Positions 15 through 47,815 of a stretch of DNA of 64,000 bases are shown here, piece after piece (the first letter of the stretch is position 1; every line of letters starts with the position of its first letter). The translations under genes were made by a program, and so were the position numbers. Source of the stretch: Ktedonobacteraceae bacterium (GTDB lineage Bacteria; Chloroflexota; Ktedonobacteria; Ktedonobacterales; Ktedonobacteraceae); NCBI GenBank assembly GCA_034431765.1, contig DAOUDD010000010.1:23403-87402 (forward strand), given 5' to 3'. The notes under the pieces were generated by a model, which saw only the letters and a program-made list of their open reading frames with translations, ran no database searches and was not told the origin of the DNA.

Positions 15-496
15 AAGTACCTTACCTCCTTACAAGATTCTAGCAGAGAATAACATACCTGCTTTGCTACATCATAAGAATGCTGTTACGCGCCCCAAAC
101 CTATGATCCATGGAAACTTCGTAACAAACATGTTCAATATCATCCATTCACAATGTTTGATATTGTAATCAACAAATAGTATTACGAAACTGGGCAAGCT
201 GAGGTATACAGAATCAGAAGGATTTTTGATCGAACTCTCGATTCTAAGAGCTAGACAAAACTTTGCTGCTCGTTTGTAAGCAGCAGTATTTTGCTAGAAC
301 TATTTCAATTTAATCTAGAGATTTGATCAAGATAATAAAAAACGAAGGATAGTATCCATTCTCACATTATAAGTATAACAGAAATCGCTACGCATGTCTG
401 TAATTATACATACTGTTCTTAACGGCCTGGCAAAGTATACTCTGAAAAGATTTCTCTTCTTTCTATTCTCGTTTTCTTCCTCAAGGAGGTTATTTT

Positions 497-2898: not shown

Positions 2899-2927
2899 CA
2901 TCCTCCCCCATCTCGTCTAGTGAACGA

Positions 2928-3569: not shown

Positions 3570-4220
3570 ATCAACAGGGATTTTCGGGGGAACGACCGCC
3601 CGCGTGAGACACGAGTAAATGAGCGTATTCGTGCGCGTGAAATACGCCTGATTGACGAGAATGGTGAGATGCTGGGAGTGATGCCTCCAATACGGGCCCT
3701 GGAGATCGCACGGGATCGAGATCTTGACCTGGTCGAGGTATCTCCCAATGTGGTTCCACCTGTGTGCAAGCTGATGGACTATGGGCGTTTCAAATACGAG
3801 CAAGCGAAGAAAGAGAATGAGGCGCGCAAGAACCAGAAGACCATCACGCTTAAAGAAATTCGTATGCGGCCACGTACCGACGAGCATGATGTCGAAGTAA
3901 AGACGCGCAAAATCCAAGAGTTCCTCGCGGAAGGTGACAAAGTACGTGTCAGCGTGCAATTCCGTGGACCGGACATGCGCCATCCTGATATTGGTCGGAA
4001 GTTGCTGGATGGGATTGCAGATGCACTAAAAGGAATGGCGACTATCGAGCGCACCCCTGTGATGGAAGGTCGTATGATGTCGATGATTGTTTCTAAGGCT
4101 CCCGGTTGGGAACCGCCCAAGAAACAGACAGCCTCTTCCGCAGACAAAACCAATGCATCGCATGCAAGCCACAATGATTCGTCAGATACCGATGACGAAT
4201 TAGAGACTGAGCAGGAGTAA
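3570..4220 (+). CDS. infC: translation initiation factor IF-3 with probable non-AUG (ATC, or ATT at 3561) start and about 45-aa acidic/Ser-rich C-terminal tail
   Basis: Conserved IF-3 core (INERIRAREIRLIDENGE, DLDLVEVSP, PPVCKLMDYGKFKYE-like, ITLKEIRMRPRTDEHD, VRVSVQFRGPD). SD GAGGAG 3555..3560 lies 9 nt before ATC 3570. The track ATG at 3516 would add a non-conserved hydrophobic leader. Confidence 0.9.
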   Translation: MNRDFRGNDRPRETRVNERIRAREIRLIDENGEMLGVMPPIRALEIARDRDLDLVEVSPNVVPPVCKLMDYGRFKYEQAKKENEARKNQKTITLKEIRMRPRTDEHDVEVKTRKIQEFLAEGDKVRVSVQFRGPDMRHPDIGRKLLDGIADALKGMATIERTPVMEGRMMSMIVSKAPGWEPPKKQTASSADKTNASHASHNDSSDTDDELETEQE

Positions 4221-4289
4221 ACGCTCTTCTGTAGGCTGTTCAGGGTATTCTTCTCTAGAGAACAGCTACACATAGCATACAAACGTACA

Positions 4290-4320
4290 GGTGTAGTTCG
4301 GCTGAACTACACCTTCTTTC
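4290..4320 (+). terminator. intrinsic terminator after infC
   Basis: Perfect 10-bp stem GGTGTAGTTC / GAACTACACC, loop GGCT, followed by TTCTTTC. Confidence 0.8.
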
Positions 4321-4535
4321 TATTGTGCTCGATACTCTCAATTACTGCACTTACCCTATTGTTCTCTGGATCGCGTCGTTCTACTGTAAATGTGTAGAGA
4401 ATTGGGTGTTGCGAGTAGGACAATTGACTTTTTCAAGCAGAGCGAAGTAAGATAGGATACTATAGAATGTCTAAGAAAGTATGTACCTCCAGCGACACCA
4501 CTTACTCGTGTAGAGGTATATAGGGAGGCCACGCA

Positions 4536-5996: not shown

Positions 5997-6027
5997 AGAC
6001 AACACAGTCAGTCAAGTAGGTCAGCAT

Positions 6028-6951
6028 TCAGGTGGTGGCGCACATTGCCGCCTGGTAGTACTTGCTCGTTGGAGCATGACCGAGGAGTGGAGCGATAAAG
6101 CGTGTTGCCTCCACTACCTTGTCTAGATCAACTCCCGTCTCTATGCCCATGCCATGCAGCATATAGACAAGGTCTTCAGTGGCAAGGTTACCTGCGGCAC
6201 CAGGAGCATAGGGACAGCCACCCAGACCGCCAGCAGCGGAATCAATGGTGCTTACCCCTATCTGCAAGGCCATTAGAACATTGGCTAAAGCGGTACCGCG
6301 TGTGTCGTGGAAGTGCACACCCACCTTTGCAAGTGGAATACCTCCTTCGTGTACCAGGAGATTAAGCATGTCTACGACCCCTTTTGGAGTCGCAACACCA
6401 ATAGTATCGCCAAGGGAGAGTTCAGCAACACCCATCTCTAGAAGGGCCTGAGCAACAGAGAGAACACGTTGAGGATCAACTGCCCCCTCATATGGGCAGC
6501 CGAAGACGGTTGAGATGTAGCCGCGTACCGCCACACCCTCTTGCTGAGCCAGAGCTACTACAGGACGAAAGTTTGCTAAGCTTTCGGCGATGCTAGCGCG
6601 AATGTTATGCCTCGTGAAGCTCTCACTGGCAGCGGTAAAAACGGTGACGGAACGCACGCCAGCGGCAAGGGCACGTTCCATTCCCTTCATATTAGGCACT
6701 AACACAGGATATGCTGTATTGGGGAGTTGTTGGAGTTGGGCCATCACCTCGCCTGCATCACTCAATTGAGGAATTGCACGCGCGCTAACGAAAGAGGTCG
6801 CTTCCACGACGGGAAGGCCTGCATCAGCGAGCAATTGGATAAACTGAACTTTTTGTGCAGTAGGAATAGTGACCTTTTCGTTCTGCAAGCCATCACGTGG
6901 CCCGACCTCAACGATCCTTACCGACGTTGGTAAAGAAGAGTAAGCTTGCAT
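6028..6951 (-). CDS. hydroxymethylglutaryl-CoA lyase
   Basis: VRIVEVGPRDGLQNE, HFHDTRG and GGLGGCPYAPGAAGN motifs. Start moved to the internal ATG 6951 (MQAYSS..), 4 nt after the upstream stop; the track start at 7077 overlaps the upstream gene. Confidence 0.9.
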   Translation of the reverse strand: MQAYSSLPTSVRIVEVGPRDGLQNEKVTIPTAQKVQFIQLLADAGLPVVEATSFVSARAIPQLSDAGEVMAQLQQLPNTAYPVLVPNMKGMERALAAGVRSVTVFTAASESFTRHNIRASIAESLANFRPVVALAQQEGVAVRGYISTVFGCPYEGAVDPQRVLSVAQALLEMGVAELSLGDTIGVATPKGVVDMLNLLVHEGGIPLAKVGVHFHDTRGTALANVLMALQIGVSTIDSAAGGLGGCPYAPGAAGNLATEDLVYMLHGMGIETGVDLDKVVEATRFIAPLLGHAPTSKYYQAAMCATT

Positions 6952-6955
6952 AGCA

Positions 6956-8410
6956 TTATGCTCCCCGATATTCATAGTGAGAAGGCTCCTTTGCCTCCTC
7001 GTGTCCTTTGCTCTCTTGCTGCCCCTGTTTCTCACGCTCTTCAGGAGATGGTAGAACCAGGAGGCCAGCATGCTCATCCATCTTCTGCAGCTCGCGAACG
7101 ACGCGAATCTTCAGGATACGTCTCCCTCGCGTTGCAAGAACAGTGAAGAGCAGATTCTCAAAACGAATTGTATCACCGCTACTGGGGATCTTATCAAGCT
7201 GAGCGTAGACGAAGCCACCGAGCGTCTCGTAATCCACATCTTCAAGTTTCATATCCATCAGCTCGTTGAAATCGTAGATGCTCATCTTCGCATCGATAAT
7301 ATATTCATCCTCACTGATCTTCTCGTAGAGCTTCTCTTCGTGGTCGTATTCATCCTGGATATCACCCACAATCTCTTCCACGAGATCTTCAATCGTCACC
7401 AGGCCAGCCACAGAGCCATACTCGTCTACCACAATCGCCATATGAGTGCGGCTCTGACGCAGTTCGCGCAGCAGATCATCAAGTTTCTTCGTTTCCGGTA
7501 CATAATAAGCCGGACGGACCAGCGCACGAATGGGAGCGCTTGCATGATTCTCACGCATCTCTCTGAGCATATCTTTCGTGTACAAAATGCCCACGATCTC
7601 GTCGAAACCGACGCTCTCTTCATAAACCGGGATACGCGAAAAACCGCCTTGGAGCGCCACATCAACCGCCTGTGTCACAGTTGCCACACTCGACAGCGTC
7701 ACCATATCGATGCGCGGCACCATCACCTCACGTACCGTCGTATCGGCGAACTCGAAGATACTGTGAATCATCTCTGTCTCTTCCTCTTCGAGCACACCCT
7801 CTTCCTCACCAACCGTCACAAGCAGGCGCAACTCCTCCTCAGTCACAAACGGGCTACGATTGCGTCCAGAGCCACCGAGGATACGAACAAAAACAGAGGT
7901 AATCGCGCTGAGAAACCAGATCAGAGGGCGGAGCAACCAGGCGACGGCACGTACAGGACCAATCAATGCACGCGCCCAACGCAATGGATTTTGTACAGCA
8001 GAAGTTTTGGGAGAGATTTCGCAGAAGATTAAGACAACCAGTGAGATAAGGACACTTGCCAGCAGCTCTCCCCAGGCCTCCGAGAAGCGCAATGCCAGCA
8101 CCGTCGCCATACTTGAAGCAACAATGACCGCAACACTATTCACAACGAGGATAGTTGAGAGAAAAATGTTAGGCTGAGCGAGGAGTTGCTCAATCTTGAT
8201 CGCTGTAGGATCACCTTCTTCAACGAGATTCTTGAGCTTAATACGGCTGATAGAAGTCAGAGCCGTTTCAGCAGCGGAAGCAATTGCACAAAGGATGAGG
8301 GCTACAACCAGAATAATAAGTTGTAGCCACGACTCACCAGTAAATTGCGGAATACGAAAGTCTATACCGGCGGCTAAACTAGCTAAGCCAGGGCCGTCCA
8401 TATGTAACAC
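6956..8410 (-). CDS. CNNM/CorC-type hemolysin-family membrane protein (DUF21 + CBS pair + CorC_HlyC domain)
   Basis: Four N-terminal TM helices, a CBS-pair region (VREVMVPRIDM..IPVYEE..) and a C-terminal CorC/HlyC segment (GGFVYAQLDKIPSSGD). GTG start directly abuts the glmU stop; an alternative ATG lies at 8401. Confidence 0.85.
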   Translation of the reverse strand: MLHMDGPGLASLAAGIDFRIPQFTGESWLQLIILVVALILCAIASAAETALTSISRIKLKNLVEEGDPTAIKIEQLLAQPNIFLSTILVVNSVAVIVASSMATVLALRFSEAWGELLASVLISLVVLIFCEISPKTSAVQNPLRWARALIGPVRAVAWLLRPLIWFLSAITSVFVRILGGSGRNRSPFVTEEELRLLVTVGEEEGVLEEEETEMIHSIFEFADTTVREVMVPRIDMVTLSSVATVTQAVDVALQGGFSRIPVYEESVGFDEIVGILYTKDMLREMRENHASAPIRALVRPAYYVPETKKLDDLLRELRQSRTHMAIVVDEYGSVAGLVTIEDLVEEIVGDIQDEYDHEEKLYEKISEDEYIIDAKMSIYDFNELMDMKLEDVDYETLGGFVYAQLDKIPSSGDTIRFENLLFTVLATRGRRILKIRVVRELQKMDEHAGLLVLPSPEEREKQGQQESKGHEEAKEPSHYEYRGA

Positions 8411-15132: not shown

Positions 15133-15879
15133 CTACGATTGCATGAAGCGCACACGACGACGTAAGTATAGATCAGCAAGCAAAACGAGAACGAAAGCAA
15201 CAGCGGGAGCAATAATCTGAACGGCTGGAAAGGACTCGAAGAAATGGTACAGGGAATCGTCGCCTAAAAAAATCTGCGCTGCGGCCCACCCAACAATCAA
15301 ACAGGCAAGATCAAGCAACCACGGAAAACGTGTAATAAGATCAGCAACAAGAACACTGCCGAGCAGTAGAAAGGTGACACTGAATACCAGACCAACGATA
15401 AGAAAAGGGATATTCCCATTAGCCAGGCCACCAACAGCCAGCACATTATCCAGACTCATGGTTACGTCTGCGATGACAATCGTGATGACAGAGGAAAGCA
15501 GACTTTTCCCTGCAGTCTTTTGCTGTTCCTCTGTAGCAGAGCTTTTTTGTATCTGCTCCCCTTCGAGCCGAGGTTTGACCCTGGCCTGTTGGTGCTCACG
15601 CTTTTGTTCTTGATAGCGCTCAAGTAGCAAATGAATCGCCACGCCAATAAGCAGGACACCACCGATCACGCCGAGCAGGGGTAGTTGCAATAGATATGTA
15701 GCAGTTGAAGCAAAGACAATGCGTAGAAAAATAGCACCGCCTCCACCAAGCACAATAGCCATGACACGCTGCTTTCGTGGCAAGCCTGCTGCCGCAGCAC
15801 CAATTACAACCGCATTATCTCCACTCAATACCAGGTCAATCACAATAATCCCCAGAACTGAACTGAGCCAGGTCAACAT
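15133..15879 (-). CDS. TerC/YjbE-family integral membrane protein
   Basis: Duplicated LSGDNAVVIG / MSLDNVLAVGG motifs in TM helices, with a central charged loop; 248 aa. Confidence 0.85.
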   Translation of the reverse strand: MLTWLSSVLGIIVIDLVLSGDNAVVIGAAAAGLPRKQRVMAIVLGGGGAIFLRIVFASTATYLLQLPLLGVIGGVLLIGVAIHLLLERYQEQKREHQQARVKPRLEGEQIQKSSATEEQQKTAGKSLLSSVITIVIADVTMSLDNVLAVGGLANGNIPFLIVGLVFSVTFLLLGSVLVADLITRFPWLLDLACLIVGWAAAQIFLGDDSLYHFFESFPAVQIIAPAVAFVLVLLADLYLRRRVRFMQS

Positions 15880-16011
15880 AGAATACTTCTACCTTCCAGA
15901 TTGCAAATTTCTACAAACTTGCTATATATAAACGTAAGACCCTCGCAAAAATAAAAAGGGGATTTAGATAGACGCAAAACTGCCTGAAAAATAAAATTGC
16001 AAGGAAGCAGA

Positions 16012-16051
16012 CTTGCTCTATCAGTAGCCCAGGCGGAACAGCTTTGCTCTA
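16012..16051 (-). repeat. tandem pair of ATAGAGCAA(G/A) boxes in the TerC leader
   Basis: Minus-strand TAGAGCAAG (16020..16012) and TAGAGCAAA (16051..16043), 31 nt apart. The same 9-mer recurs at 32602, 32631 and 25114. Confidence 0.5.
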
Positions 16052-16212
16052 TATTAGGTGCTAGAGCACTTGTCTTCTCTTGTAGGAATCTGTAGTGATC
16101 ACAACGAAATCTCTGTGTCAATTGAGCGAATCGGATGCGCGTAGTACTCTCAGGATAGACAATTTGACATACAGAGGTAAGCTCACTACAATCATATATA
16201 TCGAATGTATAA

Positions 16213-17283
16213 ATGTATGTAAAAAGTTTGAGTGAAGTGGCTTTCATAGCCTCCCAATCGGGGGTAGAAGTGAATAATTCTTCTCAGAACTTACACACTG
16301 GAAATTATCTTCTTCTGGAAAAAGTGGGTCAAAGTGACTTTGCCGAGATCTATCTTGGTAGGCATCGCGATACGCAGCAAATTGTGGCAGTGAAGCGTCT
16401 TTATGGACGTATGTTAGATGAAGAAGCCGAGATCTTTTTGCAACGCACAGAGGAACTGGTCGGGCTACAGCACAGACACATTGTATCAGTTCTGGATTAT
16501 GGTATAGAAGACGACACAGCCTATCTTGTTATGGACTATGCTCCGCAGGGAAGCTTACGAGACCGTCATCCCAAAGGTACCCGCATACCCCTGGAAACAG
16601 CCCTGGATTATGTACAACAGATTGCCTCGGCCTTACAGTATATTCATGATCGAGGGCTGGTACACCGGGATATTAAGCCACACAACATGTTGATAGGGAT
16701 GCGAGGGGAAGTAATGCTCAGTGACTTTGGTGCGATGATCAGTTCGTATAGTTTGCAAGTGCGTCCGGGCCGTTCCTATCTCAAGCACTTCGAGGGAACG
16801 GTCCTCTATACGGCCCCTGAGCAGCTTCAAGGAAAGCCACGCCGTAGCAGTGATCAATATGCATTAGCAATCGTAATATATGAATGGCTCTGTGGAACCT
16901 GGCCGTTTTCCGGCTCGTTTCATGAAGTTGCACATCAGCATCTTTTTGTCTCTCCACTACCACTCCAGCATCACGGTTATGCCTGTCCACCAAATATTGA
17001 GCGCGTGCTTCTGCGAGCACTTGAAAAAGATCCCTCAAGGCGTTTCAGCACAATTACGCAGTTTGCGGATGAACTGCAATGGGCATACAAAGTTGCGCAA
17101 GCGAAGGGCTATCTTTCATCCCCCATCCCCTCCACACCAGCTACAAGCAATGAAACAGAACCGATCAGCGTGCACATGGTGCAATCCGCACGGCTTGAGG
17201 TCGAGACAAAGACAGAAAAGCCTCTCGCAATTAAGCAACAATTTCGCTCACCGACACCATTCACCCCACAAGCCCTTTCCTGA
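16213..17283 (+). CDS. Hanks-type Ser/Thr protein kinase (soluble, no sensor domain)
   Basis: VAVKRL, HRDIKPHNMLI, DFG and TAPE motifs. The glycine-rich loop is degenerate (VGQSDFAE). Start uncertain. Confidence 0.85.
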   Translation: MYVKSLSEVAFIASQSGVEVNNSSQNLHTGNYLLLEKVGQSDFAEIYLGRHRDTQQIVAVKRLYGRMLDEEAEIFLQRTEELVGLQHRHIVSVLDYGIEDDTAYLVMDYAPQGSLRDRHPKGTRIPLETALDYVQQIASALQYIHDRGLVHRDIKPHNMLIGMRGEVMLSDFGAMISSYSLQVRPGRSYLKHFEGTVLYTAPEQLQGKPRRSSDQYALAIVIYEWLCGTWPFSGSFHEVAHQHLFVSPLPLQHHGYACPPNIERVLLRALEKDPSRRFSTITQFADELQWAYKVAQAKGYLSSPIPSTPATSNETEPISVHMVQSARLEVETKTEKPLAIKQQFRSPTPFTPQALS

Positions 17284-17328
17284 ACACACTTCACACAACT
17301 GCAACAATTTCTAGAGCAGCACTAAAAC

Positions 17329-17375
17329 GTACCACTATCTGGTGAACATTTCTTCACCGGGTAGTGGTACTTTCC
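17329..17375 (+). terminator. intrinsic terminator after the kinase gene
   Basis: 18-bp stem GTACCACTATCTGGTGAA / TTCACCGGGTAGTGGTAC (two G:U or mismatch positions), loop CATTTC, then TTTCC. Confidence 0.7.
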
Positions 17376-17714
17376 TATCAAAAAAAGTTCATTGTAAAGA
17401 ACCTTCCAGGAAAGCGTGGTAATATCCAGAACAGAGCTACAACATAAAAAAGTAGCGTAGTATTTTATGGAGTAACAAAAGTCAAAAAGAAACGCTTTTC
17501 TTCTCTTCATCCTGAGAAAAGAGATAGTCAGAAAAACGCAGTGATTTCGTTTTTAGACAACATCTTACCTAGAAGCCATACATGTTTATGTATGTGATTT
17601 TCTTAACCCTCTAGAGAAGAAATGATGAAGCGAAACAGGCAATAGACAGCAGACAGGCAGTCTTCCATTTTTTGACAACGGTTTTTGGTAGGAGAAATAG
17701 GAGTAAGCATACTA

Positions 17715-18908
17715 ATGTTCAAGCGTAACTTACGAACACTGATTATCAGCCTCGGCATTCTAGGAGTGGTGGTCGCACTCATTCTTACCTCTGTCGCAAC
17801 GAACACTTTCGCGGCAAGCCACAATAGTTCAGGCGATAGCAATCGAGCAGCCCAACGTGGAGATGGAGATAATGATGGGAATGAGAGAGTACAGACGATC
17901 AATAACCTCAAGCGTATCTCGCTTGTAGGCAGCACTGCTGCGATTCTGGACCCGAAAGGGCAACACACCGTTATGGCAGATGCAAATCCTTACAAGGTTG
18001 TCATCGTGCCAGACAATATAAACATGCCAGGCTTGAAGGCTGGAGATCTTCTGGTAAGCAATATTGGAGGGGAAGATAAAGGGACGACGCTGGTCAGCTT
18101 CCCTAAGAAGATGGGCCCAGGGCATCAGTTTAATGTGATGGAGAGTGCTGGTCTTGTTGGCCCTGCGGGTATTGCCTTCAACATGCAAAGCGGCACAATC
18201 TGGGTTGCTTGTATGGGAGCGAACGATGTACAAATTCTGAAGCCGGACGGCAACGTTTTCTCCACCATCACAAGTGGCATGTTCGCTAAACCCTGGGGTA
18301 TTACAAGTAATAATGGAATGGCGAATAAAGCGATTGGTTCGACAGGAGCCTTCTTCGTGAGTAACGTTGCAGATGCAACGATTGACCGCATTGACATTCT
18401 GCCTCAAAGAGGACAGGCACTCCCGCAGTTTAAGGTCACACAAATCGCACAACTTACAAAAAATGGTGAAAAGACGAAAAGCGAGTTGCGCTGGCTCCCC
18501 AAACTGAACGTCAAGGGCAAAGAGCTAAAAGACGTCCTTCTTGCAATCGATCCAGCAAATAATCGTATCGCGGCCTTCCCTAACAGTAGCACAATAGCTA
18601 AAGCTGCTAACCAGGGTGTGACAGTCTTCCAGGGCAAACCGCTCAATGTCCCAGGTGGATTTGCTATCAACCCGATCAACGGTGATCTGCTGGTGGTTAA
18701 CCTTGCTGACAACAACATGGTAGAACTCAACATGGCCAGAGGCAAAGTTGTCGCCACAAAACAGGTTGACAACGTTCCAGTTGATCCAACCAACAACAAT
18801 GGTTCAGCTCTTTTCGGTGTCACAGCAACGAAAGACGAACAAGGCAACCTGCTTGTCTACTACACAGACGACAACACAAACGCACTGCACATGCTCAGTA
18901 GATCTTAG
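17715..18908 (+). CDS. membrane-anchored/secreted beta-propeller-like repeat protein (NHL/SMP-30-like)
   Basis: Start at MFKRNLRTLIISLGILGVVVALIL (signal/anchor) behind TAGGAG. Repeated segments of the type GPAGIAFN..G.IWVA, PWGITSN and PGGFAINP.NGDLLVVN. Confidence 0.6.
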   Translation: MFKRNLRTLIISLGILGVVVALILTSVATNTFAASHNSSGDSNRAAQRGDGDNDGNERVQTINNLKRISLVGSTAAILDPKGQHTVMADANPYKVVIVPDNINMPGLKAGDLLVSNIGGEDKGTTLVSFPKKMGPGHQFNVMESAGLVGPAGIAFNMQSGTIWVACMGANDVQILKPDGNVFSTITSGMFAKPWGITSNNGMANKAIGSTGAFFVSNVADATIDRIDILPQRGQALPQFKVTQIAQLTKNGEKTKSELRWLPKLNVKGKELKDVLLAIDPANNRIAAFPNSSTIAKAANQGVTVFQGKPLNVPGGFAINPINGDLLVVNLADNNMVELNMARGKVVATKQVDNVPVDPTNNNGSALFGVTATKDEQGNLLVYYTDDNTNALHMLSRS

Positions 18909-32739: not shown

Positions 32740-33384
<645 letters not shown>

Positions 33385-33806
33385 CAGAGCGAGGAGAGTG
33401 CACTACGCCCACCCTCTCCGACTGAAATTTTCGCCTGTTTGATAACGGACAAGGCATAACGGATGTATGCCTCCATGTATTGAGGGAAACAAGAACAACC
33501 AGGCTCCTTTTCTATAGAGAAGCACTGGTTGTTCTATCTACTCGGTACTCCAGGTGATAAAAAGTTATTGGCCCACGATGTGACGCCGTTCGACAGAGAG
33601 AACGCCACTTTTACGCCCAAGCTGAATAACCTGGATAATTTTCATCAGTTGATCGGTTGTCGCTTCACGCTGTATCAACGACTCTGCTCCAGAGAGTGGT
33701 TTCCTCGCAGCCAAACTCGGTTCTACTGGATACACTCATGAACTTGCTCAGAACATCTGTTGATAAAAATCCTTATATGAGAAGAGATAGTAAGATAGCT
33801 TTCTTA

Positions 33807-33825
33807 GAGAGTGTAAGGTTTGCGT
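33807..33825. repeat. IS left inverted repeat GAGAGTGTAAGGTTTGCGT
   Basis: Exact reverse complement of 34737..34755. Confidence 0.9.
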
Positions 33826-33828
33826 GGT

Positions 33829-34297
33829 TCACGGAAAAGTAGGAGCCAAGTGGGAGAGCATGCGCCGACTTGCCGAGAGTTTGATGAATGCCTCACTCGT
33901 CTCAGGAAGTCCTTCATGATCGCGAGCCAGACGACGCCATCGGGTAATCCAGGCGAAGCTGCGCTCAACGACCCATCTGCGGGGAAGCACGCGAAAGCTT
34001 CCCTTTGCCCCTTTCTCCTTGGGTTCCTCTGGCTGTGTGTTGACCTGTGGAGCGGTTCCCAGACCCTGCACTCCGTGCATGTCCCACCCCACGTGCTCTT
34101 TCACCCACGCAATGAGCGTGCCCCTGTAATGACTATCTCCCCAGATGAGCTGCATGCGTGGAAACGCATCTGCCAGTGGCTCAAGCAGCGTCTTGGCTCC
34201 TACCAGATCGGAAGCAGAGGCGGCTGTCACTTTCACCTCCATGAGATGGCCCTGCGTATCAACGAGCACGTGCCTTTTGCGACCCCAGATTTTTTTT
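33829..34297 (-). CDS. IS5-family transposase OrfB (DDE domain), expressed by -1 frameshift from OrfA
   Basis: DDE_Tnp_1-like sequence (GRKRHVLVDTQG, IWGDSHY, VERSFAWI..RRLARD). The -1 frame is entered at GGGAAAAAAAATC (A8 = 34290..34297). Confidence 0.85.
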
Positions 34298-34675
34298 CCC
34301 CGCGTCGTAGCCCTTGTCAGGACCGCGAACCGCGCTCGTTTTGATCGATTGGCTGTCAATCACAGCCGCACTCGGCCCTTGCTCTCGGCCTGCGTGGTGC
34401 CGAACCTGTTTGAGCAGGCTTTTTTGAACGTCGTCCCAGATGCCTTCCTTGCGCCACGTACGGAAGTAGTCATAGAGCGTTCCCCAGGCTGGCAAGTCAT
34501 GGGGAACCAACCTCCACGGACAGCCGCTGCGCAACACGTAGAGAATCCCATTGACAATTTCGCGCCGCGTGTACACCACGTTGACCGCCTCTGGCGAGAT
34601 GGCTGGAATCAAGGGTTCCAACAGCTCCCACTCCGCATCTGTCAGATCCGAGGGGTAGGCTTTCCGATCACACAT
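34259..34675 (-). CDS. IS5-family transposase OrfA (DUF4096-like DNA-binding part)
   Basis: ATG 34675 behind GGAGG, inside the IS. Sequence DLTDAEWELLEPLIP..GCPWR..LP. The track start 34777 lies outside the element. Confidence 0.85.
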   Translation of the reverse strand: MCDRKAYPSDLTDAEWELLEPLIPAISPEAVNVVYTRREIVNGILYVLRSGCPWRLVPHDLPAWGTLYDYFRTWRKEGIWDDVQKSLLKQVRHHAGREQGPSAAVIDSQSIKTSAVRGPDKGYDAGKKNLGSQKARAR

Positions 34676-34736
34676 TCCTGCTCCTCCAATGCTTCCGCTT
34701 GTTCTTGTTTCTCTCCTTCCCTTTATCGGCTTGAGG

Positions 34737-34755
34737 ACGCAAACCTTACACTCTC
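34737..34755. repeat. IS right inverted repeat
   Basis: Exact reverse complement of 33807..33825. Confidence 0.9.
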
Positions 34756-35132
34756 TTAGAAGAAGGGAGCGCAGCAATGAAAGAATTTACTCACTTTCGC
34801 CTTATACCCGGCCCATTCAGATTATTTTCCTTGCCCAGATACTATCCCTGACTTCAGTCAGTATGATGAATCATAAATCACACTGAAATACATGGTAATG
34901 CTAACCATCTTACGTCGCAGAGAAAGAAAAGTAAATACTTTTAGGTGGTATGCAACGATATTTCGTCACCTAAAAACATTTCCGACAACGTTCCTCCGTT
35001 GATACTCAAATAATATTCTTTTCCATCTCTTTGCTATATATTCTTTGTTCAATAATATACATTTCTATATACAAATAATGTTCTTTTTGCTAGCTTTATA
35101 CGTTAAGAAAAGAGAAGGATCAGCTATCAGAT

Positions 35133-37082
35133 ATGTGGAGGAGGAAGAAAGTGACCCTAAAGCAGACCCCATTGCCAGTTGCGGGCATTCAACACCGCAA
35201 CAATCTTGTCCCATTAACTGAACAAGAGATACGCTTCGAGATTGATATGTGTATTGGTTGTGATCGCTGTATGCGTGCATGTCCCTTACCGCTTTCAAGC
35301 CAGATGAATATCGCTGAACTCAATCTCGCAACTGTTTCTCATGAGGTTGCCCCACACATTGCTCGCTTCACGCAGGAGTGTGTGATGTGCAGCTCATGTG
35401 TGCCGGTCTGTCCGGTGAATAATCATCGTGACCTGTTAATGTTCTCACTTAAACAACGACTTGGAGTACCCTGGGACGGCAATGTAGATCTAAGCCGGAT
35501 TCTGGGGTATCTGCCTGAGGGTTGGAGTTTACCGCAGTTGCTCAGTCGTTTACGCAAGCAGCCGATGTTCACAGACGAGCACCTCGTGCCGGAGCACTAT
35601 CTCAAACACCTTCTTGCAAGCTCAAGGCTGCGCGCTCTCGCTCCTGGAGCAACTGTTATCCGGGAAGGAACGTATGGACGCGAGATCTATTTTATTCTTG
35701 ATGGGCGCTTCCTTATCTCTTCTCCTGGTCCTAATAGTCAGAGTGTTCCGATCGCCATTCTCTCCTTAGGAGAATGCATGGGTGAGCGTGAAATGCTGAC
35801 GGGTCAACAGCATACAGCGAACATCCAGGCTCAGACAAGAGCGCTGGCCCTGGAAGTGCCCGAACAGGTCATGCAGCGGATGATGGAGATCATACCCAGC
35901 GTGCGTAGCTACTTTGAGAGTCTGAATAATGGCCGTTCCATTGAGTCTATCCTGAAGCGTATGGCGCTGTTCAGAGGAGTTACTGAACCTGATCTACAAT
36001 GGATAGCCAGAAAGATAATGATCAAGATATATGAGCGCGATCAACTGCTCTTCTCCATGAAAGGTGAGAGCAAACCTGAGCGCGAGGTACTCCACATCAT
36101 ACTGGAAGGATTTGTCAAAGTAACGCGTGCAATACTGCATGGAGCAGATGCGAGAAAGGAGTCTGAACGTATTATTGCTTATCGGCAGAACGGCGACTAC
36201 TTTGTTGGAGGCCTGGATATGCTTGGAGATGGGAAGGCAGTTATAGCAACAGCTATTAACAGAGTACGAGTCGCAGAGATCGGGCAACAGGATTTCCTGG
36301 CAATTCTCTCACGTTATCCAGAGTTGCAGCAACGCTTTATACAACATTTTCAGGAATATCAAGAACTTGTCGTTCAAGCATCTGACAAATCCAAAGAGTT
36401 TCTCCCCTCTGGTGAGTCTGGTATTCTGTCGGAGGCAGAGACCCGTGTTGGTCTGCGTGCACTCGTTGGAGGAGGGGTTGTAGAAGGGACAGAAGTACTG
36501 GTAATTGACCTGGACAAATGTGTCCACTGCGATAAATGTGAGGATGCATGTGAACGTCGTCACGGCCATTCAAGAATGAATCGTAAAGGCATGGTTGTAG
36601 GCAACATCAGTATTGCCACTGCCTGTCGTCACTGCCAGGACCCTGTCTGTATGCTCTGTAGCCGTGCAGGGATAGCACGCATGCCAAGTGGTGAAGTATA
36701 TATCACGGATAGTTGTATTGGCTGCGGCATCTGTGCTGAACGTTGTCCGTACGATAATATCTCGATCATTACCTTAACAGAAGAGCAGGAAAGCCGTTCA
36801 GTCTGGGAACGCTTTACACACTTTTTCACAAAAGGAATCGGGAAGGAATACGGAGGCCAGGCGCATCCTCTCGCCTCAAGCAACGGTAGTTCGCTCCCAG
36901 CCTCCGATACATACGATGCAGGTAGCGAGGTACGTAAAAAGCTAGCGATTAAATGCGACCTCTGTGCTGGATATAACAACCAGGCGTGCGTTCAAGCCTG
37001 TCCGACTGGAGCGGCGTTCCGCGTTCACCCCGTACAGTTCTTTGGCACTAGAGAAGAGACGCTTTATCCACGGGCACAATAG
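35133..37082 (+). CDS. multi-[4Fe-4S] protein with two internal cNMP-binding-like domains
   Basis: Six ferredoxin-type Cys clusters: CIGCDRCMRACP, CVMCSSCVPVCP, CVHCDKCEDAC, CRHCQDPVC, CIGCGICAERCP, CDLCAGYNNQACVQACP. They flank two CAP-fold-like segments. An alternative GTG start lies at 35151. Confidence 0.8.
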   Translation: MWRRKKVTLKQTPLPVAGIQHRNNLVPLTEQEIRFEIDMCIGCDRCMRACPLPLSSQMNIAELNLATVSHEVAPHIARFTQECVMCSSCVPVCPVNNHRDLLMFSLKQRLGVPWDGNVDLSRILGYLPEGWSLPQLLSRLRKQPMFTDEHLVPEHYLKHLLASSRLRALAPGATVIREGTYGREIYFILDGRFLISSPGPNSQSVPIAILSLGECMGEREMLTGQQHTANIQAQTRALALEVPEQVMQRMMEIIPSVRSYFESLNNGRSIESILKRMALFRGVTEPDLQWIARKIMIKIYERDQLLFSMKGESKPEREVLHIILEGFVKVTRAILHGADARKESERIIAYRQNGDYFVGGLDMLGDGKAVIATAINRVRVAEIGQQDFLAILSRYPELQQRFIQHFQEYQELVVQASDKSKEFLPSGESGILSEAETRVGLRALVGGGVVEGTEVLVIDLDKCVHCDKCEDACERRHGHSRMNRKGMVVGNISIATACRHCQDPVCMLCSRAGIARMPSGEVYITDSCIGCGICAERCPYDNISIITLTEEQESRSVWERFTHFFTKGIGKEYGGQAHPLASSNGSSLPASDTYDAGSEVRKKLAIKCDLCAGYNNQACVQACPTGAAFRVHPVQFFGTREETLYPRAQ

Positions 37083-37094
37083 GAGCAAGTTATC

Positions 37095-37997
37095 ATGGCA
37101 GTAAGTAGGTTTTCTCCTAAAAAGAGCAAGGATACCTCGACAAAACGCTTCTGGCACACACCTACATCCAGAGTGGCTAGAGCCTGGCTCCTCTTTGCTA
37201 GTGGGTATACAGCTCTCTTCTATATACTCTATCTAATTCTCCTGCATGTGAAGACGCGTTTTGTCAGTGGCCCTTTTTTTGATGTCGTCTTTCGCTGCGG
37301 AGCAATGTCCTATCTTATGATTCTAGGGGTTGCAGCTTACTCGCTGCGCACACGTTTCTTCCATGGTTTACCGTGGAAAGCACAAAATTGGGTCTGGGCG
37401 CACATCTGGGTTGGTATCACCTCACTCCTTCTGGCATTGCTCCATGCCGACTTCCGTTTTTTGTTGCACTTTGACTGTTCTGGCCTCCCTTGCGTGGCTG
37501 ATAAATATCTGGCGCTTCCTTCGCTTTATGGCCTGTTTATCCTCGTACTGAGCGGCGGCATTGGTCGTTTGCTTGACTCTTGGCAGACGAGAGTGATTGC
37601 TCTGGATGCACGTACAAATGGTGTTGGTATAGCGAAAGCGCTCAAAGTGTCGCTGGTTGAGTTAGAGTATATAGTGGAGCGATTGAGCGCAGGAAAGTCT
37701 GATGGGTTCAAACAATACTGTACCGATGCTATACAAAGCGTAAATGACCTATCTCCTGACATTCCGCCACTTCCTCTACAAGAGAGAGCTGATTTTCAAC
37801 AGGCTTATACAATTCTTCAGCAGCATGCGCGGCTCACAGCCTCACTACGACTCCAAACACGAGCACACACTATCTTACGTATATGGCGTAGAGTTCATAC
37901 TGTGCTCGCTCCACCAATATTACTGGTCATTTCATATCATGCCGTTGCAGAATTGATCCGTGTTCTCCAGGATCAGATTCACGTTCCTCCGTTATAA
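37095..37997 (+). CDS. polytopic membrane protein with intramembrane histidines (cytochrome-b/DUF4405-like N-terminal part)
   Basis: Starts 12 nt after the upstream stop, behind TAGGAGCAAG. At least 5 hydrophobic helices, with His in LILLHV, WAHIWVGITSLLLALLHA and LLVISYHAV. Confidence 0.65.
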   Translation: MAVSRFSPKKSKDTSTKRFWHTPTSRVARAWLLFASGYTALFYILYLILLHVKTRFVSGPFFDVVFRCGAMSYLMILGVAAYSLRTRFFHGLPWKAQNWVWAHIWVGITSLLLALLHADFRFLLHFDCSGLPCVADKYLALPSLYGLFILVLSGGIGRLLDSWQTRVIALDARTNGVGIAKALKVSLVELEYIVERLSAGKSDGFKQYCTDAIQSVNDLSPDIPPLPLQERADFQQAYTILQQHARLTASLRLQTRAHTILRIWRRVHTVLAPPILLVISYHAVAELIRVLQDQIHVPPL

Positions 37998-38211
37998 GAC
38001 TATATGTCTAGGGGACGTTTTTGAGAAAGGACCAGGAGATGATTAATCAGTTCATGATTCTCTTTGCTAGTAGTTGTCGTCTATACAGAAGATATGACAG
38101 AACTACACTCATCACAACTTCTTCGCAATGCCAACGATTACTTGATGCATATACTGTCATGCTATGCTGTAAAGCAGAGTTGTACTATTTTTTGTAATGG
38201 AGGTTATTGTT

Positions 38212-38958
38212 ATGCAAGAGAGCATCGCCCACATAAGGAATACGGTACTACCTCTATCAACACTCCAGGAGATGTATACCTCAGGACTATACCTGCAGAA
38301 ACATCCTCATTGGCACGTCGAAGAGTCACCATGGAAGGCAGCGCAAGTACTGCGTATGCTGCAACAAAACAGGCTTGCCCCAAAAACCATCTGTGAAATA
38401 GGGTGTGGTGCCGGAGAAATTTTGCTTCAATTACAGCACCAGATGGAGCATGACCGTCAATTCTGGGGCTATGACATCTCGCCTCAAGCGGTTGCTCTAG
38501 CAAAAACACGTGAAAATCTACGCCTGCACATACAATTGCAGGATGGCCCACAAGACCCAGATGCACACTTTGATCTACTCCTCTTTATGGATGTGCTTGA
38601 GCATATTGAAGATCACTTTGGCTTTTTGCGCAGCATGCGTGCAAAAGCCGACTATAAAATCTTTCATGTCTCACTTACTCTCTCGGTACAAACTATCTTA
38701 CGGAAGAGAGGGCTACTCAAAGTTCGTGAAAACTATGGTATGGTTAACCACTTTAGCAAAGAAACGCTGCTACAGACATTGAGCGATGCAGGGTATGAGA
38801 TTGTTGACAGCTTTTATACGACAGCCTGCACCGATCTTCCTTCGCAAGAACTGCAACGAAACCTGTTAAAAATCCCGCGTAAGTTCTTATTTGCACTTCA
38901 TCAGGATCTTGCTGTACGGCTGCTCGGTGGTTACCGCTTCCTCGTACTTGCACGTTAG
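38212..38958 (+). CDS. class I SAM-dependent methyltransferase
   Basis: Motif I ICEIGCGAGEIL and acidic motif LLLFMDVLEHI. ATG 38212 lies 8 nt after GGAGG; the track ATG 38197 overlaps that SD. Confidence 0.8.
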   Translation: MQESIAHIRNTVLPLSTLQEMYTSGLYLQKHPHWHVEESPWKAAQVLRMLQQNRLAPKTICEIGCGAGEILLQLQHQMEHDRQFWGYDISPQAVALAKTRENLRLHIQLQDGPQDPDAHFDLLLFMDVLEHIEDHFGFLRSMRAKADYKIFHVSLTLSVQTILRKRGLLKVRENYGMVNHFSKETLLQTLSDAGYEIVDSFYTTACTDLPSQELQRNLLKIPRKFLFALHQDLAVRLLGGYRFLVLAR

Positions 38959-41196: not shown

Positions 41197-43548
41197 TTAT
41201 GCATGATCGTGCAATGCGGAGAAGACTCGCTCAGGAGTCATGGGTAATTGACGCACATGTGCACCGGTAGCATCGGCGATTGCATTTGCAATGACAGCCG
41301 CGACAGGTATTACAGGCGGTTCGCCAACACCCTTTGCACCAAAGGGTCCCAGACCGGAGGGAATCTCTACAAGAATCGGTGTGATATTCGGCACATCGTA
41401 GCTGTGTGGCAACGCATAGTCCATCAAAGTGGACGTAAGCAACTGACCGTTCTCATCGTATGAGAAGCCTTCAAAGAGCGCCCAACCAATGCCTTGAGTC
41501 ACCCCTCCGTAGATCTGCCCTTCAACCTCTGCTGGATTGATGGCATGCCCAACATCCTGAGCAGCTACAAAATCTAATACACGCACCTCACCAGTCTCAG
41601 GATCAACCGCAACTTTCGCTACCTGTGCAGTATACATAGGCACTGTCACATTGTTTGCAGCACGGCCACGTCCATAGACCGGCTCGAAACGACCAGCAAA
41701 GCGCATAGAGGCCGATGCGATATCGCGCAACGAAAGACGCTTCGCAGGTACTCCTTTGACGACAACAGCATCCTCTGATAGCTCCAGATCATCGACAGCG
41801 GCCTCCAGCATCTCGCTGGCAATGGTGAGAATCTGATTGCGAGCATCACGTGCGGCTGCAAGAACAGCGGGACCAAGAGAATACACTGTTTTGCTGCCAC
41901 CAGTGCCTCCACTATAGGGCATAGTATCTGTGTTAGCATGAGCAACGTTCACTGTTGAAGTGGATACGCCCAGACCTTCAGCGGCAATGAGAGCCATACT
42001 GGTATCGGAGCCGGTGAGGTCAACGGAACCGAGCACAACTGTCATCGTCCCATCTTTCTCCAGACGACATGCAGCGGCAGCAGGCTCTGTTCCGCCAGGC
42101 CAGCCCCCAACAGCTATACCGTAACCGATCTTCCAACCGGGCAACGCCGTTTCACTGCGTCTAGAGCCTTCGTCCTGTGCACGTTGCAGCCAGAGTGGAT
42201 GATGTTCAATCTGCTCAAGACATGAGAGCAGGCCGATCTCAGGAATGAGAGGACGACGTTTGTCCTGTGTAGGATTCGGATCGCCCTCGCGCAACACATT
42301 TTTCTTGCGGAACTGGATCGGGTCCATCGAGAGTGCCTGACACAATTCGTCAACTGCCGATTCCAGAGCAAAGGTAATCTGAGGTGCACCTGGAGCGCGA
42401 TAGGCTCCCACACCAACCTTGTTGGTCAGCACTTCATAGCCGCGAATAGAGATATTGGAGCAACGATACGTATTGGAGAGGATATATGCACCCAGGCCAA
42501 CACCGGCACCAGGATAAGCTCCGGTATCGAAGATCAATGTTGCCTCTAACGCAACCAGAGTTCCATCGCGTTTTGCTCCCAACTTCACCGTCATGACCGT
42601 CTGGGGAGCAGGATTGCCAGCCAGGAGATCCTCCTGTCGTGTGTAGACGAGGCGGACAGGTTTGCGCACACGAACAGCAGCAGCAGCGACGAGAGGTTCG
42701 ATCAAACCAAACTTTCCTCCGAAAGCACCGCCGATAGGAACTGACTCCACGCGAATCTGTCGCTCAGGTATCTTCAGCGCCTCAGCAATGTCTGAGCGCA
42801 CACCAAATAAGTGCTGTGTGCTAGGATAGACGGTAAGCTCATGACCAGAAGCACTTGGCACCACAGTAATCGACTGCGGCTCGATATACGACTGGTGTAC
42901 TGGAGGAGTGCGATACGTGCGCTCTACATGCAGCTCGGCCTCACGCCAACCTGCTTCAATGTCACCAACCTGCATATGACTCTTATCAGCGATGTTCTGT
43001 GAAAGCAGCTCTGCCTCTTCCTCCTCAATCTGCTCAGAAGAGACCGTTGCATGCGCGCCTCCACCTGCAATCTCGGCATCCTCGTTCTGCTCACGTGGAC
43101 GTGCCAGTGGAGCATCAAGCTGCATCCCCGTCATAGGATCTATCACTACCGGGAGCGGCTCGTACTCGACATCCACAGCTGCAACACCATCTTCAGCGAT
43201 TGCCTCTGATTCTGCCAGAACGATTGCTACCGGATGACCACACCAGAATACTTCGTCCTCTGCAAGTGGGAAATGTGAACGCGAAGTGCTCGGTGCCGAA
43301 GCCATACCGATCGTCTCATGAGTATAGACAGCTACGACACCGGGAACAGCGCGAGCAGCAGCAATATCGATCGAGACAATACGAGCATGGGCATAAGGAC
43401 TTAACACGAGGCGCGCGTGCAATAAACCAGCAAATGGCAGATCGCCAGCGTAACGTGCTCGTCCAGTTAGTTTATCGGGTGCATCCATACGCTGCGTCGG
43501 TTTGCCGACTGCATGATAGGAAGGTGTAGAATCAAGAGTTTGTGTCAT
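41197..43548 (-). CDS. xanthine dehydrogenase/aldehyde oxidase/CoxL-family molybdopterin-binding large subunit
   Basis: Internal ATG 43548. N-terminal a/b-hammerhead (VGKPTQRMDAPDKLTGRARYAGD) and GGAFGGK, GTGGS.. motifs; about 783 aa. Confidence 0.88.
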   Translation of the reverse strand: MTQTLDSTPSYHAVGKPTQRMDAPDKLTGRARYAGDLPFAGLLHARLVLSPYAHARIVSIDIAAARAVPGVVAVYTHETIGMASAPSTSRSHFPLAEDEVFWCGHPVAIVLAESEAIAEDGVAAVDVEYEPLPVVIDPMTGMQLDAPLARPREQNEDAEIAGGGAHATVSSEQIEEEEAELLSQNIADKSHMQVGDIEAGWREAELHVERTYRTPPVHQSYIEPQSITVVPSASGHELTVYPSTQHLFGVRSDIAEALKIPERQIRVESVPIGGAFGGKFGLIEPLVAAAAVRVRKPVRLVYTRQEDLLAGNPAPQTVMTVKLGAKRDGTLVALEATLIFDTGAYPGAGVGLGAYILSNTYRCSNISIRGYEVLTNKVGVGAYRAPGAPQITFALESAVDELCQALSMDPIQFRKKNVLREGDPNPTQDKRRPLIPEIGLLSCLEQIEHHPLWLQRAQDEGSRRSETALPGWKIGYGIAVGGWPGGTEPAAAACRLEKDGTMTVVLGSVDLTGSDTSMALIAAEGLGVSTSTVNVAHANTDTMPYSGGTGGSKTVYSLGPAVLAAARDARNQILTIASEMLEAAVDDLELSEDAVVVKGVPAKRLSLRDIASASMRFAGRFEPVYGRGRAANNVTVPMYTAQVAKVAVDPETGEVRVLDFVAAQDVGHAINPAEVEGQIYGGVTQGIGWALFEGFSYDENGQLLTSTLMDYALPHSYDVPNITPILVEIPSGLGPFGAKGVGEPPVIPVAAVIANAIADATGAHVRQLPMTPERVFSALHDHA

Positions 43549-43758
43549 CGCAAATCGATCTCCATTCCTAAGTGAAAAGTGGCACAGTGAAAGTGTATCA
43601 CAAAACACGGATGGAGAATGAGATGAAATGCTTCCTGTGGTGAGCATATGCTCTCCTACCGATCTTTTCTAACAATCTTGTATTTGGTAGAAAAAGCACC
43701 CAGATCTCATCTTTTTAGAATACGAGGCGCGCATGCTCTTTCCAGAGAGGAACCTTCG

Positions 43759-46930: not shown

Positions 46931-47815
46931 TTATAAGAACCTTGGTACCACACGAGTCACAAAATGCTCAAGAGTGTCTAGATTCGGGATACGAAACATA
47001 AAATGAGTAACACCAAGAGTATGAAATTGCTCAAGTTCACGTGTCACCTGATCAGCATTTCCCGCAATGTAGTGTTTCGAGGGATGACGTTGCACCTGCG
47101 TGGGGTCTTCAGAAACGCTTAATGTTGCCAGGTATGTAAGCTTGATCTCAGCGAGATTACGTCCAACGCGTTCACAGTGTTGGCGAAGAACTGCTAGCTT
47201 ATGTGCATACTCTTCAGCAGAGCACGAGTTAAAATTCCACTGATCAGCGTAACGAGCGACGAGTGCCAATGTTCGCCTTTCACCACCCCCACCTATCAAA
47301 AGAGGTATTGTTGGTGCAGGTTGAGGAGAGCAGTAGGCATCGTGAATAGAGTAGTGTTTCCCGCCAAAGGTAGCAGGTTGCCTGGTCCAGAGAGCACGAA
47401 TTACACCGATGGCCTCTTCAAGTTCGTCCATACGCATGCCAGTTGAAGGAAAGGGATAACCGTACGCATGGTACTCCTCCTCTTTCCAGCCAGCACCCAA
47501 TCCGAGAATAAAGCGGCCTCGCGAAAGGGCTTGTATATTCGCAGCCATTTTTGCAAGCAGTGCAGGATTGCGATAGGACTGTGCCACCACCAGCGTGCCT
47601 ACAGAGAATTGTGGATACAGCGCAGCAAGATAGCTCAACGTCGTCAAACACTCCAGCTCGTCTGTCTCCCCGACCTGTAAATGGTCCTCCAACCAAAGGG
47701 TTGAAAAGCCTGCAGTCAGTCGTTCAATACATTGCCTGTTATACAGCATCAGGTCCTGTAAGGATTGACCGGGATCATTCTGACGCAGCATCAAGCCAAA
47801 ATCTACTGTGGCCAA
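46931..47815 (-). CDS. LLM-class (luciferase-like) F420-dependent oxidoreductase
   Basis: TTG start 8 nt after AGGAG. LGLGAGWKEEEYHAYGYPF motif; 294 aa. Confidence 0.8.
   Translation of the reverse strand: MATVDFGLMLRQNDPGQSLQDLMLYNRQCIERLTAGFSTLWLEDHLQVGETDELECLTTLSYLAALYPQFSVGTLVVAQSYRNPALLAKMAANIQALSRGRFILGLGAGWKEEEYHAYGYPFPSTGMRMDELEEAIGVIRALWTRQPATFGGKHYSIHDAYCSPQPAPTIPLLIGGGGERRTLALVARYADQWNFNSCSAEEYAHKLAVLRQHCERVGRNLAEIKLTYLATLSVSEDPTQVQRHPSKHYIAGNADQVTRELEQFHTLGVTHFMFRIPNLDTLEHFVTRVVPRFL

Follow-up and report, generated by a model that had tools for sequence, protein, structure and literature searches.

The window analysed here is a stretch of 64,000 nucleotides of DNA from a Ktedonobacteraceae bacterium (assembly GCA_034431765.1, contig DAOUDD010000010.1), in which two adjacent genes, called A and B below, are predicted to encode parts of a transmembrane electron-transfer system. 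Gene A (35133..37082, + strand), an open reading frame (ORF) of 649 amino acids (aa), codes for a cytoplasmic polyferredoxin that carries a tandem insert of cyclic-nucleotide-monophosphate (cNMP)-binding-fold domains. Gene B (37095..37997, + strand), an ORF of 300 aa, codes for a membrane protein with five transmembrane (TM) segments and is predicted to be a di-haem b conduit. Both ORFs lie at the coordinates, and have the lengths, that had been given in an earlier note on this DNA. An alternative GTG start codon of A at 35151 would yield a product of 643 aa, which is the database form of the protein (P0001).

The spacer between A and B is 12 nt. The earlier note had placed a separate Shine-Dalgarno sequence in front of B, and direct reading of the sequence confirmed it: an AGGAG motif (37081-37085, + strand) overlaps the TAG stop codon of A and is located 9 nt before the ATG of B. 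Because of this overlap, translational coupling of A and B is plausible. The same gene order, with the same intact A and B, was present in a second, independent assembly. An Rfam scan of 33300-38300 revealed no riboswitch or RNA element upstream of the pair, and no signal exceeding shuffled expectation was observed in a promoter and terminator scan of 34700-38300.

Domains and conserved ligand residues of the A and B products

At least 664 homologues of A were found, and 61 of them were used in the conservation alignment. Pfam families Fer4, Fer4_7, Fer4_9 and Fer4_10 matched A above their cut-offs, the Fer4 families covering aa 33-97 and 456-627, so that the check for such families that the earlier note had called for came out positive. 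The first of these regions is an N-terminal 2x[4Fe-4S] ferredoxin domain (35229..35423, + strand), with Cys 40, 43, 46, 50, 83, 86, 89 and 93 and with Fer4_7, Fer4_9 and Fer4_10 matches; the second is a C-terminal module with four Cys groups at 463-473, 498-509, 528-538 and 608-623 (36498..37013, + strand), similar to HycB, DmsB and ArrB. All Cys motifs quoted in the earlier note are present, and the 24 motif Cys residues, 8 N-terminal and 16 C-terminal, are invariant across the 61 homologues. The A product thus probably binds six [4Fe-4S] clusters, two in the N-terminal domain and up to four in the C-terminal module. Neither TM segments nor a Tat signal were predicted in A.

The C-terminal module had previously been described as a DmsB/HybA-like block. 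The four Cys groups that underlie this description are there, but the closest PDB relatives are HycB4, HycB, ArrB and FdnH, and the scores of DmsB and Fer4_11 are below cut-off (17.6 bits against 26.2 for Fer4_11, PF13247). Comparison with NCBIfam equivalogs gave 47 bits for ArrB (cut-off 450), 40 for DsrO (200), 37 for DmsB (214) and 35 for HydN (260), and the partial matches that the C-terminal module has in NCBIfam (ArrB, AegA, DsrO and HydN) are all far under their cut-offs. We therefore conclude that this module only resembles four-cluster subunits and belongs to no named family. HycB, HybA, DmsB, FdnH and ArrB share the four Cys groups with it; unlike these subunits, A has in addition an N-terminal dicluster domain and the cNMP-binding (CNB) tandem, is cytoplasmic, and has no catalytic Mo or NiFe partner.

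The CNB tandem lies between the two Fe-S modules. Family PF00027 (cNMP_binding) matched A in two stretches, with an E-value of 1.2e-22 and 80.1 bits against a gathering cut-off of 27.5. CNB domain 1 (35577..35927, + strand; aa ~149-265) contains the best PF00027 stretch at 167-252 and a binding cassette at aa 212-233, and was modelled by AlphaFold2 (AF2) with a per-residue confidence (pLDDT) of about 90. CNB domain 2 (35955..36317, + strand; aa ~275-395) contains the second stretch and was modelled with a pLDDT of 60-85; by sequence it is weak, its best PDB match, of the Crp/Fnr type, having an E-value of 1.4e-3. When the AF2 model of A was used in a fold search, the top matches were the tandem CNB-A/CNB-B domains of PKA-R and PKG, aligned to both A domains over ~280 columns with E-values from 3e-18 to 1e-14. 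The earlier note's assignment of two CAP/CRP-type barrels is therefore upheld, by the PF00027 scan it had proposed for aa ~150..400 as well as by the fold. In PKA-R and PKG the tandem regulates a kinase, whereas in A it is embedded in a polyferredoxin.

The two binding cassettes differ from the canonical one (Glu + Arg, G-E...R-[ST]-A) in different ways. Alignment to PKG, PKA and HCN revealed that CNB-1 of the window copy has kept Glu218 and has His227 at the position of the canonical phosphate-binding Arg. In the family, the Glu is present in 58 of 61 sequences, and the Arg position is occupied by Arg in 47 and by His in 9. Altogether, CNB-1 of the window departs from its family by R212L, G220E, R227H, T230N and R232Q. 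The CNB-2 cassette, GDYF(A/V)GGLDMLGD.(R/K)AV, is highly conserved and non-canonical family-wide, with Gly360 at the Glu position (60/61) and R/K368 (53/61), and its ligand, if any, may be something other than a cyclic nucleotide. Gating by cAMP or cGMP, as put forward in the earlier note, is plausible for the family, most members of which have a canonical CNB-1 sequence; it fits the window copy poorly, given His for Arg and four more changes in CNB-1 and Gly for Glu in CNB-2. These deviations of the two window cassettes recall the "cAMP-independent" PKA-R of trypanosomes, which was solved with nucleosides (6hyq and 6flo, both among the fold matches).

For B, at least 252 homologues were found. 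A profile search of 1.84 billion representatives returned 268 relatives, and the B family is therefore small. Twenty-eight family members and 24 distant relatives, 52 sequences in all, were aligned. The B product has five hydrophobic helices, where at least five had been expected, and an N-terminal tail with 8 Lys and Arg residues, from which an N-in/C-out topology is predicted. Two His pairs, both with H-x13-H spacing, are invariant in 52/52 sequences, distant and multihaem-c-fused relatives included: H103/H117 in TM3 (37401..37445, + strand) and H268/H282 in TM5 (37896..37940, + strand). Among the residues singled out in the earlier note, H103/H117 (WAHIW...LLHA) and H282 (ISYHAV) belong to these pairs; H268 had been missed, and H51 (LILLHV), being found in only 4 of 28 family members, was rejected as a haem ligand. 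In proteins of the FRD type, two haems are held by His pairs on TM3 and TM5 (PMC3591440), and a purified DUF4405 protein was reported to bind haem b via four central His residues (PMC11334425). Some members of the B family carry precomputed matches to PF01794 (Ferric_reduct). B is thus predicted to be a divergent di-haem b protein of the FRD/DUF4405 type.

Distant relatives of B that are 670-1070 aa long have the same TM domain followed by multihaem cytochrome c domains. In 10/10 fused relatives checked there are exactly five CxxCH motifs, all past the last TM segment, and 2/10 have an N-terminal FHA domain. Since c-haem domains mature outside the cytoplasm, these fusions independently support both the C-out topology of B and its role as a transmembrane conduit. 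Between TM4 and TM5, B has a conserved cytoplasmic helical insert of ~100 aa (37575..37880, + strand; motifs NGVGIAKA and ELEYxVERLSAGKS; AF2 pLDDT 84-94), which is a candidate docking site for the A product. A CxxxxC motif (C128/C133; 37476-37493) lies in what is predicted to be the outer loop joining TM3 to TM4. All 28 sequences from Ktedonobacteria have it; in most distant relatives it is missing or falls in a gap. Close to the outer haem, the two Cys residues may form a disulfide, or else a site that binds a metal or is redox-active.

A conserved cassette around the A-B pair

A scan of species-representative genomes yielded 67 loci, all from Ktedonobacteria, which fall into two paralogous clades. 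A is directly upstream of B in 62 of 63 related Ktedonobacteria loci and also in 5/5 distant loci (L071-L075), so that the co-occurrence check suggested in the earlier note gave a clear result. A flavoprotein gene is found directly upstream of A in 56/59 loci, and FHA domains are encoded in 58/62. Upstream of A and B in Ktedonospora formicarum (locus L001) lie separate genes for a Pyr_redox_2 flavoprotein and for a protein that combines two FHA domains with a zinc ribbon, and in a metagenome-assembled genome (MAG; locus L002) these two proteins are fused. The nearest relatives of the flavoprotein are 3lxd, BphA4, TodA and putidaredoxin reductase, which are NAD(P)H:ferredoxin, rubredoxin or putidaredoxin reductases, and a Rubredoxin_C domain is present. 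The A-B pair is therefore not a stand-alone module, as it is the invariant core of a wider cassette, whose third core part is the flavoprotein together with its two FHA domains and zinc ribbon. The substrate side, which had been left open on the basis of the window, is not open in the family, where this NAD(P)H flavoprotein stands next to A or, in some lineages, is fused to it. Regulation through FHA domains and Ser/Thr kinases had no place in the earlier reading.

The clade I cassette consists of flavoprotein-FHA, A and B only. Clade II loci have extra genes: in 27/45 there is one for a small Rieske protein, in 27/42 one for a Ser/Thr kinase next to the cassette, and in 32/40 one downstream for a 453-aa protein with zinc-ribbon, TM and extracytoplasmic parts. 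This last protein, as encoded at 10918-12279 of L002, starts with a zinc ribbon, followed by a Pro-rich linker, a single TM segment and an extracytoplasmic domain of ~330 aa for which Pfam has no match. The protein is a candidate for a partner of the conduit at the outer face. Several Ktedonobacteria genomes contain two paralogous cassettes (L008/L054, L009/L047, L015/L056 and others). In three MAG loci (L022, L056 and L060) cassette genes are broken across reading frames, which could be explained by long-read indel errors or by pseudogenes.

Outside Ktedonobacteria-type loci the same parts recur in fused form. In the distant locus L072, a 1520-aa protein contains Pyr_redox_2, two FHA, Fer4, cNMP-binding and again Fer4 domains, and its gene adjoins a form of B with the order FHA, TM domain, pentahaem cytochrome c. 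Two Ser/Thr kinases flank this locus, and its surroundings (695-8000 and 15600-17741), densely packed with signalling genes, also encode a 1128-aa GAP1-N2/GAP1-M protein and an FHA protein apart from the fused ones. Full flavoprotein/FHA/Fe-S/CNB fusions of ~1500 aa form about 30 clusters. In four further distant loci, where B is 24-30% identical, A lies immediately upstream of B. In L071, an independent IS5-like element (4494-5905; DUF772 + DDE_Tnp_1) is located between the flavoprotein-FHA and Fe-S genes, the same junction at which an insertion sequence (IS) is found in the window.

No catalytic Mo/W or NiFe subunit was found beside the window pair or in the annotated relatives L001, L002, L071, L072 and L075, and no MsrP-like molybdoenzyme in the annotated cassettes of L001 and L002. 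The earlier note was thus correct that no catalytic subunit is adjacent in the window; in the family, this place is taken by the flavoprotein beside A. A function in anti-phage defence, an idea prompted by the FHA, kinase and cNMP-binding content, was considered and rejected: PADLOC recognised only a generic CNB similarity of A to Pycsar effectors and produced no matches for B, the flavoprotein-FHA protein or the zinc-ribbon protein. No characterised system that combines these components turned up in literature searches, in agreement with the earlier note, whose author knew of no characterised complex with the composition of A-B.

The window copy and its surroundings

The window instance is an atypical, stripped-down copy of the cassette, being the sole clade I locus of 14 without flavoprotein and FHA genes. 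The place that the flavoprotein-FHA gene has in relatives is occupied by an IS5-family insertion sequence (33807..34755, - strand), which is not part of the system. Its end is 377 bp from the ATG of A, close to the 375 bp estimated earlier. The element has 19-bp inverted repeats (33801-33825 / 34737-34761) and a TTA(G) direct repeat, and its overlapping ORFs (DUF4096 at 34259-34777 and DDE_Tnp_1 at 33829-34359) suggest a transposase produced by programmed frameshifting. Because the inverted repeats are intact and the TTA(G) target is duplicated, we conclude that the element simply inserted here and did not bring about the loss. Deletion of the flavoprotein gene by the element was rejected on these grounds and because joining the IS flanks restores 796 bp of pre-insertion intergenic DNA with no remnant of a flavoprotein-FHA gene.

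A luciferase-like monooxygenase gene of the window (46931-47815, - strand) shares ~70% identity with the immediate upstream neighbour of the flavoprotein gene in the Ktedonobacter/Ktedonospora loci L001, L004, L005 and L007. This homologue is now 9 kb downstream of the pair and on the other strand; the neighbourhood has therefore been rearranged, by a local rearrangement or an inversion. A Ser/Thr-protein-kinase-like ORF (16213-17283, + strand), 19 kb from the pair, is matched by the cassette kinases of L001 and L002 at 29-36% identity. The large subunit of a molybdenum hydroxylase (Ald_Xan_dh_C, MoCoBD_1, MoCoBD_2; 41197-43647, - strand) is encoded 3.2 kb downstream. It was rejected as a missing catalytic subunit and probably has nothing to do with the pair, since it is encoded on the other strand at a distance of three unrelated genes and is missing beside the cassette in relatives. 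As the pair stands alone and the CNB-1 Arg is lost, the window copy either draws its electrons from a reductase or ferredoxin whose gene lies elsewhere, or has begun to decay.

Proposed electron route, alternatives and meaning

The arrangement of the genes, their domains and invariant ligands, the joint conservation of A and B, the fusions and the topology argument described above lead us to propose, with moderate confidence, that the cassette is a signal-gated conduit that carries electrons from NAD(P)H to the outer face of the membrane. Electrons would pass from NAD(P)H to the FAD of the flavoprotein, then through the six [4Fe-4S] clusters of A to an inner haem b, held by H103 and H268, and an outer haem b, held by H117 and H282, and finally to an acceptor at the outer face; in clade II, the Rieske protein would be inserted between FAD and the A clusters. 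In distant relatives the acceptor would be the fused pentahaem cytochrome c, and in Ktedonobacteria the candidates for it are O2, a metal, a quinone and a partner protein. The flux would be gated by a ligand bound to the CNB tandem and by phospho-Thr signals that involve the FHA domains and the Ser/Thr kinases encoded nearby. The idea of an Fe-S subunit paired with a haem-b-like anchor, which the earlier note had derived from the window, is thereby kept, being supported by the invariant His pairs, the weak FRD and DUF4405 matches and the co-conservation.

Several observations weigh against this conduit. Cofactor binding, direction of flow, acceptor and gating are what we infer, and no member of the cassette family has been characterised by experiment. 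The window B had zero matches in Pfam (E <= 1) and NCBIfam, and in family members scanned singly the matches are weak: 26/28 matched PF01794, with a best E-value of 1.4e-6, and 17/28 matched PF14358 (DUF4405), with a best value of 1.9e-4. The pattern of a b-type cytochrome or DUF4405-like anchor, noted earlier in B, is hence seen in the four invariant His residues and in the family and not as a match of the window protein itself. The TM region of the AF2 model of B has a pLDDT of 50-65, and in a fold search of this model against the PDB nothing was found at E <= 1e-3, the long helices drawing coiled-coil matches. In the AF2 model of A, the Fe-S modules are at a pLDDT below 50, and no cluster-chain geometry could be derived. 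In the window copy itself, the CNB-1 cassette is degenerate, A has 17 substitutions at columns conserved to >=90% (median 4), ranking 6th of 60, and the flavoprotein and FHA genes are missing from the whole 64 kb, with no remnant in the restored intergenic DNA.

The last of these observations would also be accounted for if the window pair were what remains, non-functional or in decay, of a cassette that lost its flavoprotein-FHA gene through a local rearrangement. The unique absence of these genes within clade I, the broken synteny around the displaced luciferase-like gene, and the excess of substitutions in A, five of which are in the CNB-1 cassette, all favour decay. Yet both ORFs are full length, the cofactor ligands (24 Cys and 4 His) and the coupled Shine-Dalgarno sequence are intact, the independent assembly contains the same intact genes, the five sequences that deviate more than the window A are simply the most divergent lineages, and a flavoprotein gene may be located elsewhere in the genome, of which 64 kb were covered. 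We regard decay as unlikely, though as an alternative to be taken seriously. Somewhat less likely still, in our view, is a respiratory role: B would act like FdnI, NarI or HybB as a cytochrome b anchor that reduces quinone or oxidises quinol, making the cassette an alternative NAD(P)H:quinone oxidoreductase under regulation, with electrons that stay in the membrane. The nearest relatives of the C-terminal module of A (HycB, FdnH, ArrB and DmsB) are normally docked on quinone-interacting anchors, FdnI and NarI also have two haems stacked across the membrane, and the Ktedonobacteria forms of B have no fused external cytochrome. But no member of the B family was seen to match Ni_hydr_CYTB or NarI, the recurring matches being FRD and DUF4405 only, and the continuation of the B domain into an extracytoplasmic pentahaem cytochrome c in distant relatives points to transfer through the membrane.

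Two other alternatives concern the direction and purpose of the flow. The cassette might be a redox sensor, in which haems and Fe-S clusters report the extracytoplasmic or cytoplasmic redox state to a kinase/FHA and cNMP network without bulk flux. This would fit the density of signalling domains (two FHA and two CNB domains, kinases in 27/42 clade II loci, and the two kinases flanking L072), but a full chain of six clusters and two haems with its own NAD(P)H flavoprotein is costly, the 24 Cys and 4 His have stayed invariant across deeply diverged sequences, and pentahaem fusions are typical of flux carriers; we consider a sensor improbable. Electrons might also be taken up, from an extracellular donor via the outer haem (or the multihaem c of relatives) and the Fe-S clusters to the flavoprotein and NAD(P)+ or ferredoxin. 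Ferredoxin reductases are reversible. The Fe(II) oxidiser Ferrigenium straubiae expresses a possibly related cluster, for which the authors of that work proposed an inward route (bioRxiv 10.64898/2026.01.22.701106), but that cluster is likened to ours by description and not by sequence comparison. Moreover, electrons taken up would have to overcome the membrane potential and the energetic step from b haems, at their typical potentials, up to NAD(P)+. Ktedonobacteria live as aerobic heterotrophs, and their B proteins are not fused to a c-type cytochrome; we give inward flow very little credence.

The nearest functional analogues of the proposed conduit are the NOX/FRE enzymes and the MsrQ-Fre system. 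NOX/FRE enzymes such as SpNOX and NOX5 share with the cassette a cytoplasmic NAD(P)H-flavin input and outward export, and some of them are gated by signalling domains (EF-hands in NOX5). They contain two stacked b haems, bound by two His pairs on parallel TM helices, inner with inner and outer with outer; the NOX2 ligands H101/H115 and H209/H222 have x13/x12 spacing, against x13/x13 in B (PMC3591440). In NOX the dehydrogenase is a fused FNR-type FAD/NADPH domain, whereas the cassette has a separate flavoprotein of the glutathione reductase family and a six-cluster polyferredoxin; B has no FAD_binding_8 or NAD_binding_6 domain (Pfam), and the flavoprotein of its relatives is of the Pyr_redox_2 family. 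The NOX/FRD core has six TM segments, B five and the ~100-aa cytoplasmic insert, and the NOX signature His at +4 was not seen in B. MsrQ (YedZ) and Fre have in common with the cassette a stand-alone FRD-type haem-b protein, a separate cytosolic flavin reductase and outward electron flow (PMC12525009). MsrQ has neither an Fe-S partner nor signalling domains, and the cassette has no MsrP-like enzyme. YedZ-type proteins have only three of the four His residues (PMC3591440).

The flavinylation-associated cytochromes of the DUF4405, FezC and PepSY-like types resemble B in their four central His residues and are proposed transmembrane conduits (PMC11334425). They have six TM segments and ApbE-flavinylated partners, in contrast to the five TM segments and the cytoplasmic polyferredoxin partner of B, and no apbE was seen in the annotated cassette loci. 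CbcL-type proteins of Geobacter follow the same logic as the distant B relatives, with a di-haem b TM domain and a periplasmic multihaem c domain; the b domain of CbcL is of the quinol-linked HydC/FdnI family, and the window B has no c-haem domain. In Ferrigenium straubiae, genes for an FHA-1TM-nonahaem cytochrome c, for a five-TM protein with no InterPro match and for a cytosolic [4Fe-4S] protein are adjacent, and the FHA and multihaem combination was called previously unreported (bioRxiv 10.64898/2026.01.22.701106). This nonahaem cytochrome c (NHC) cluster, again likened by description, mirrors L072 with a different split of domains, the five-TM protein being separate from the FHA-nonahaem cytochrome c. 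It looks like a permutation of the same cassette, which may account for the five-TM and [4Fe-4S] genes beside the Ferrigenium FHA-multihaem cytochrome.

Every class of part in the cassette (ferredoxin reductase, polyferredoxin, di-haem b conduit, CNB and FHA domains) is known. Their fixed combination is new, being undescribed in the literature found. A "hypothetical" five-TM family with no database annotation can now be assigned a probable cofactor content. We also entertain, as a speculative and rather improbable extension, that the cassette is a modular bacterial counterpart of the "respiratory burst" of eukaryotic NADPH oxidases, that is, a switchable export of electrons from NAD(P)H to extracellular O2, yielding superoxide, or to metals. 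If so, it would be switched on by Ser/Thr phosphorylation via the FHA domains and by a (cyclic) nucleotide via the CNB domains, would serve developmental or inter-organism signalling in the mycelial, sporulating Ktedonobacteria, and would have been rewired in other phyla to a pentahaem wire for regulated extracellular electron transfer.

The system is small, comprising three proteins. It is kept across Ktedonobacteria, often as two paralogues per genome, and recurs elsewhere as single-polypeptide fusions and in multihaem-c-linked forms. If the proposed signal-gated conduit is correct, these bacteria would gate the passage of cytoplasmic reducing power across the membrane post-translationally, with phospho-Thr and a small ligand acting on the electron-transfer chain itself and not on transcription.

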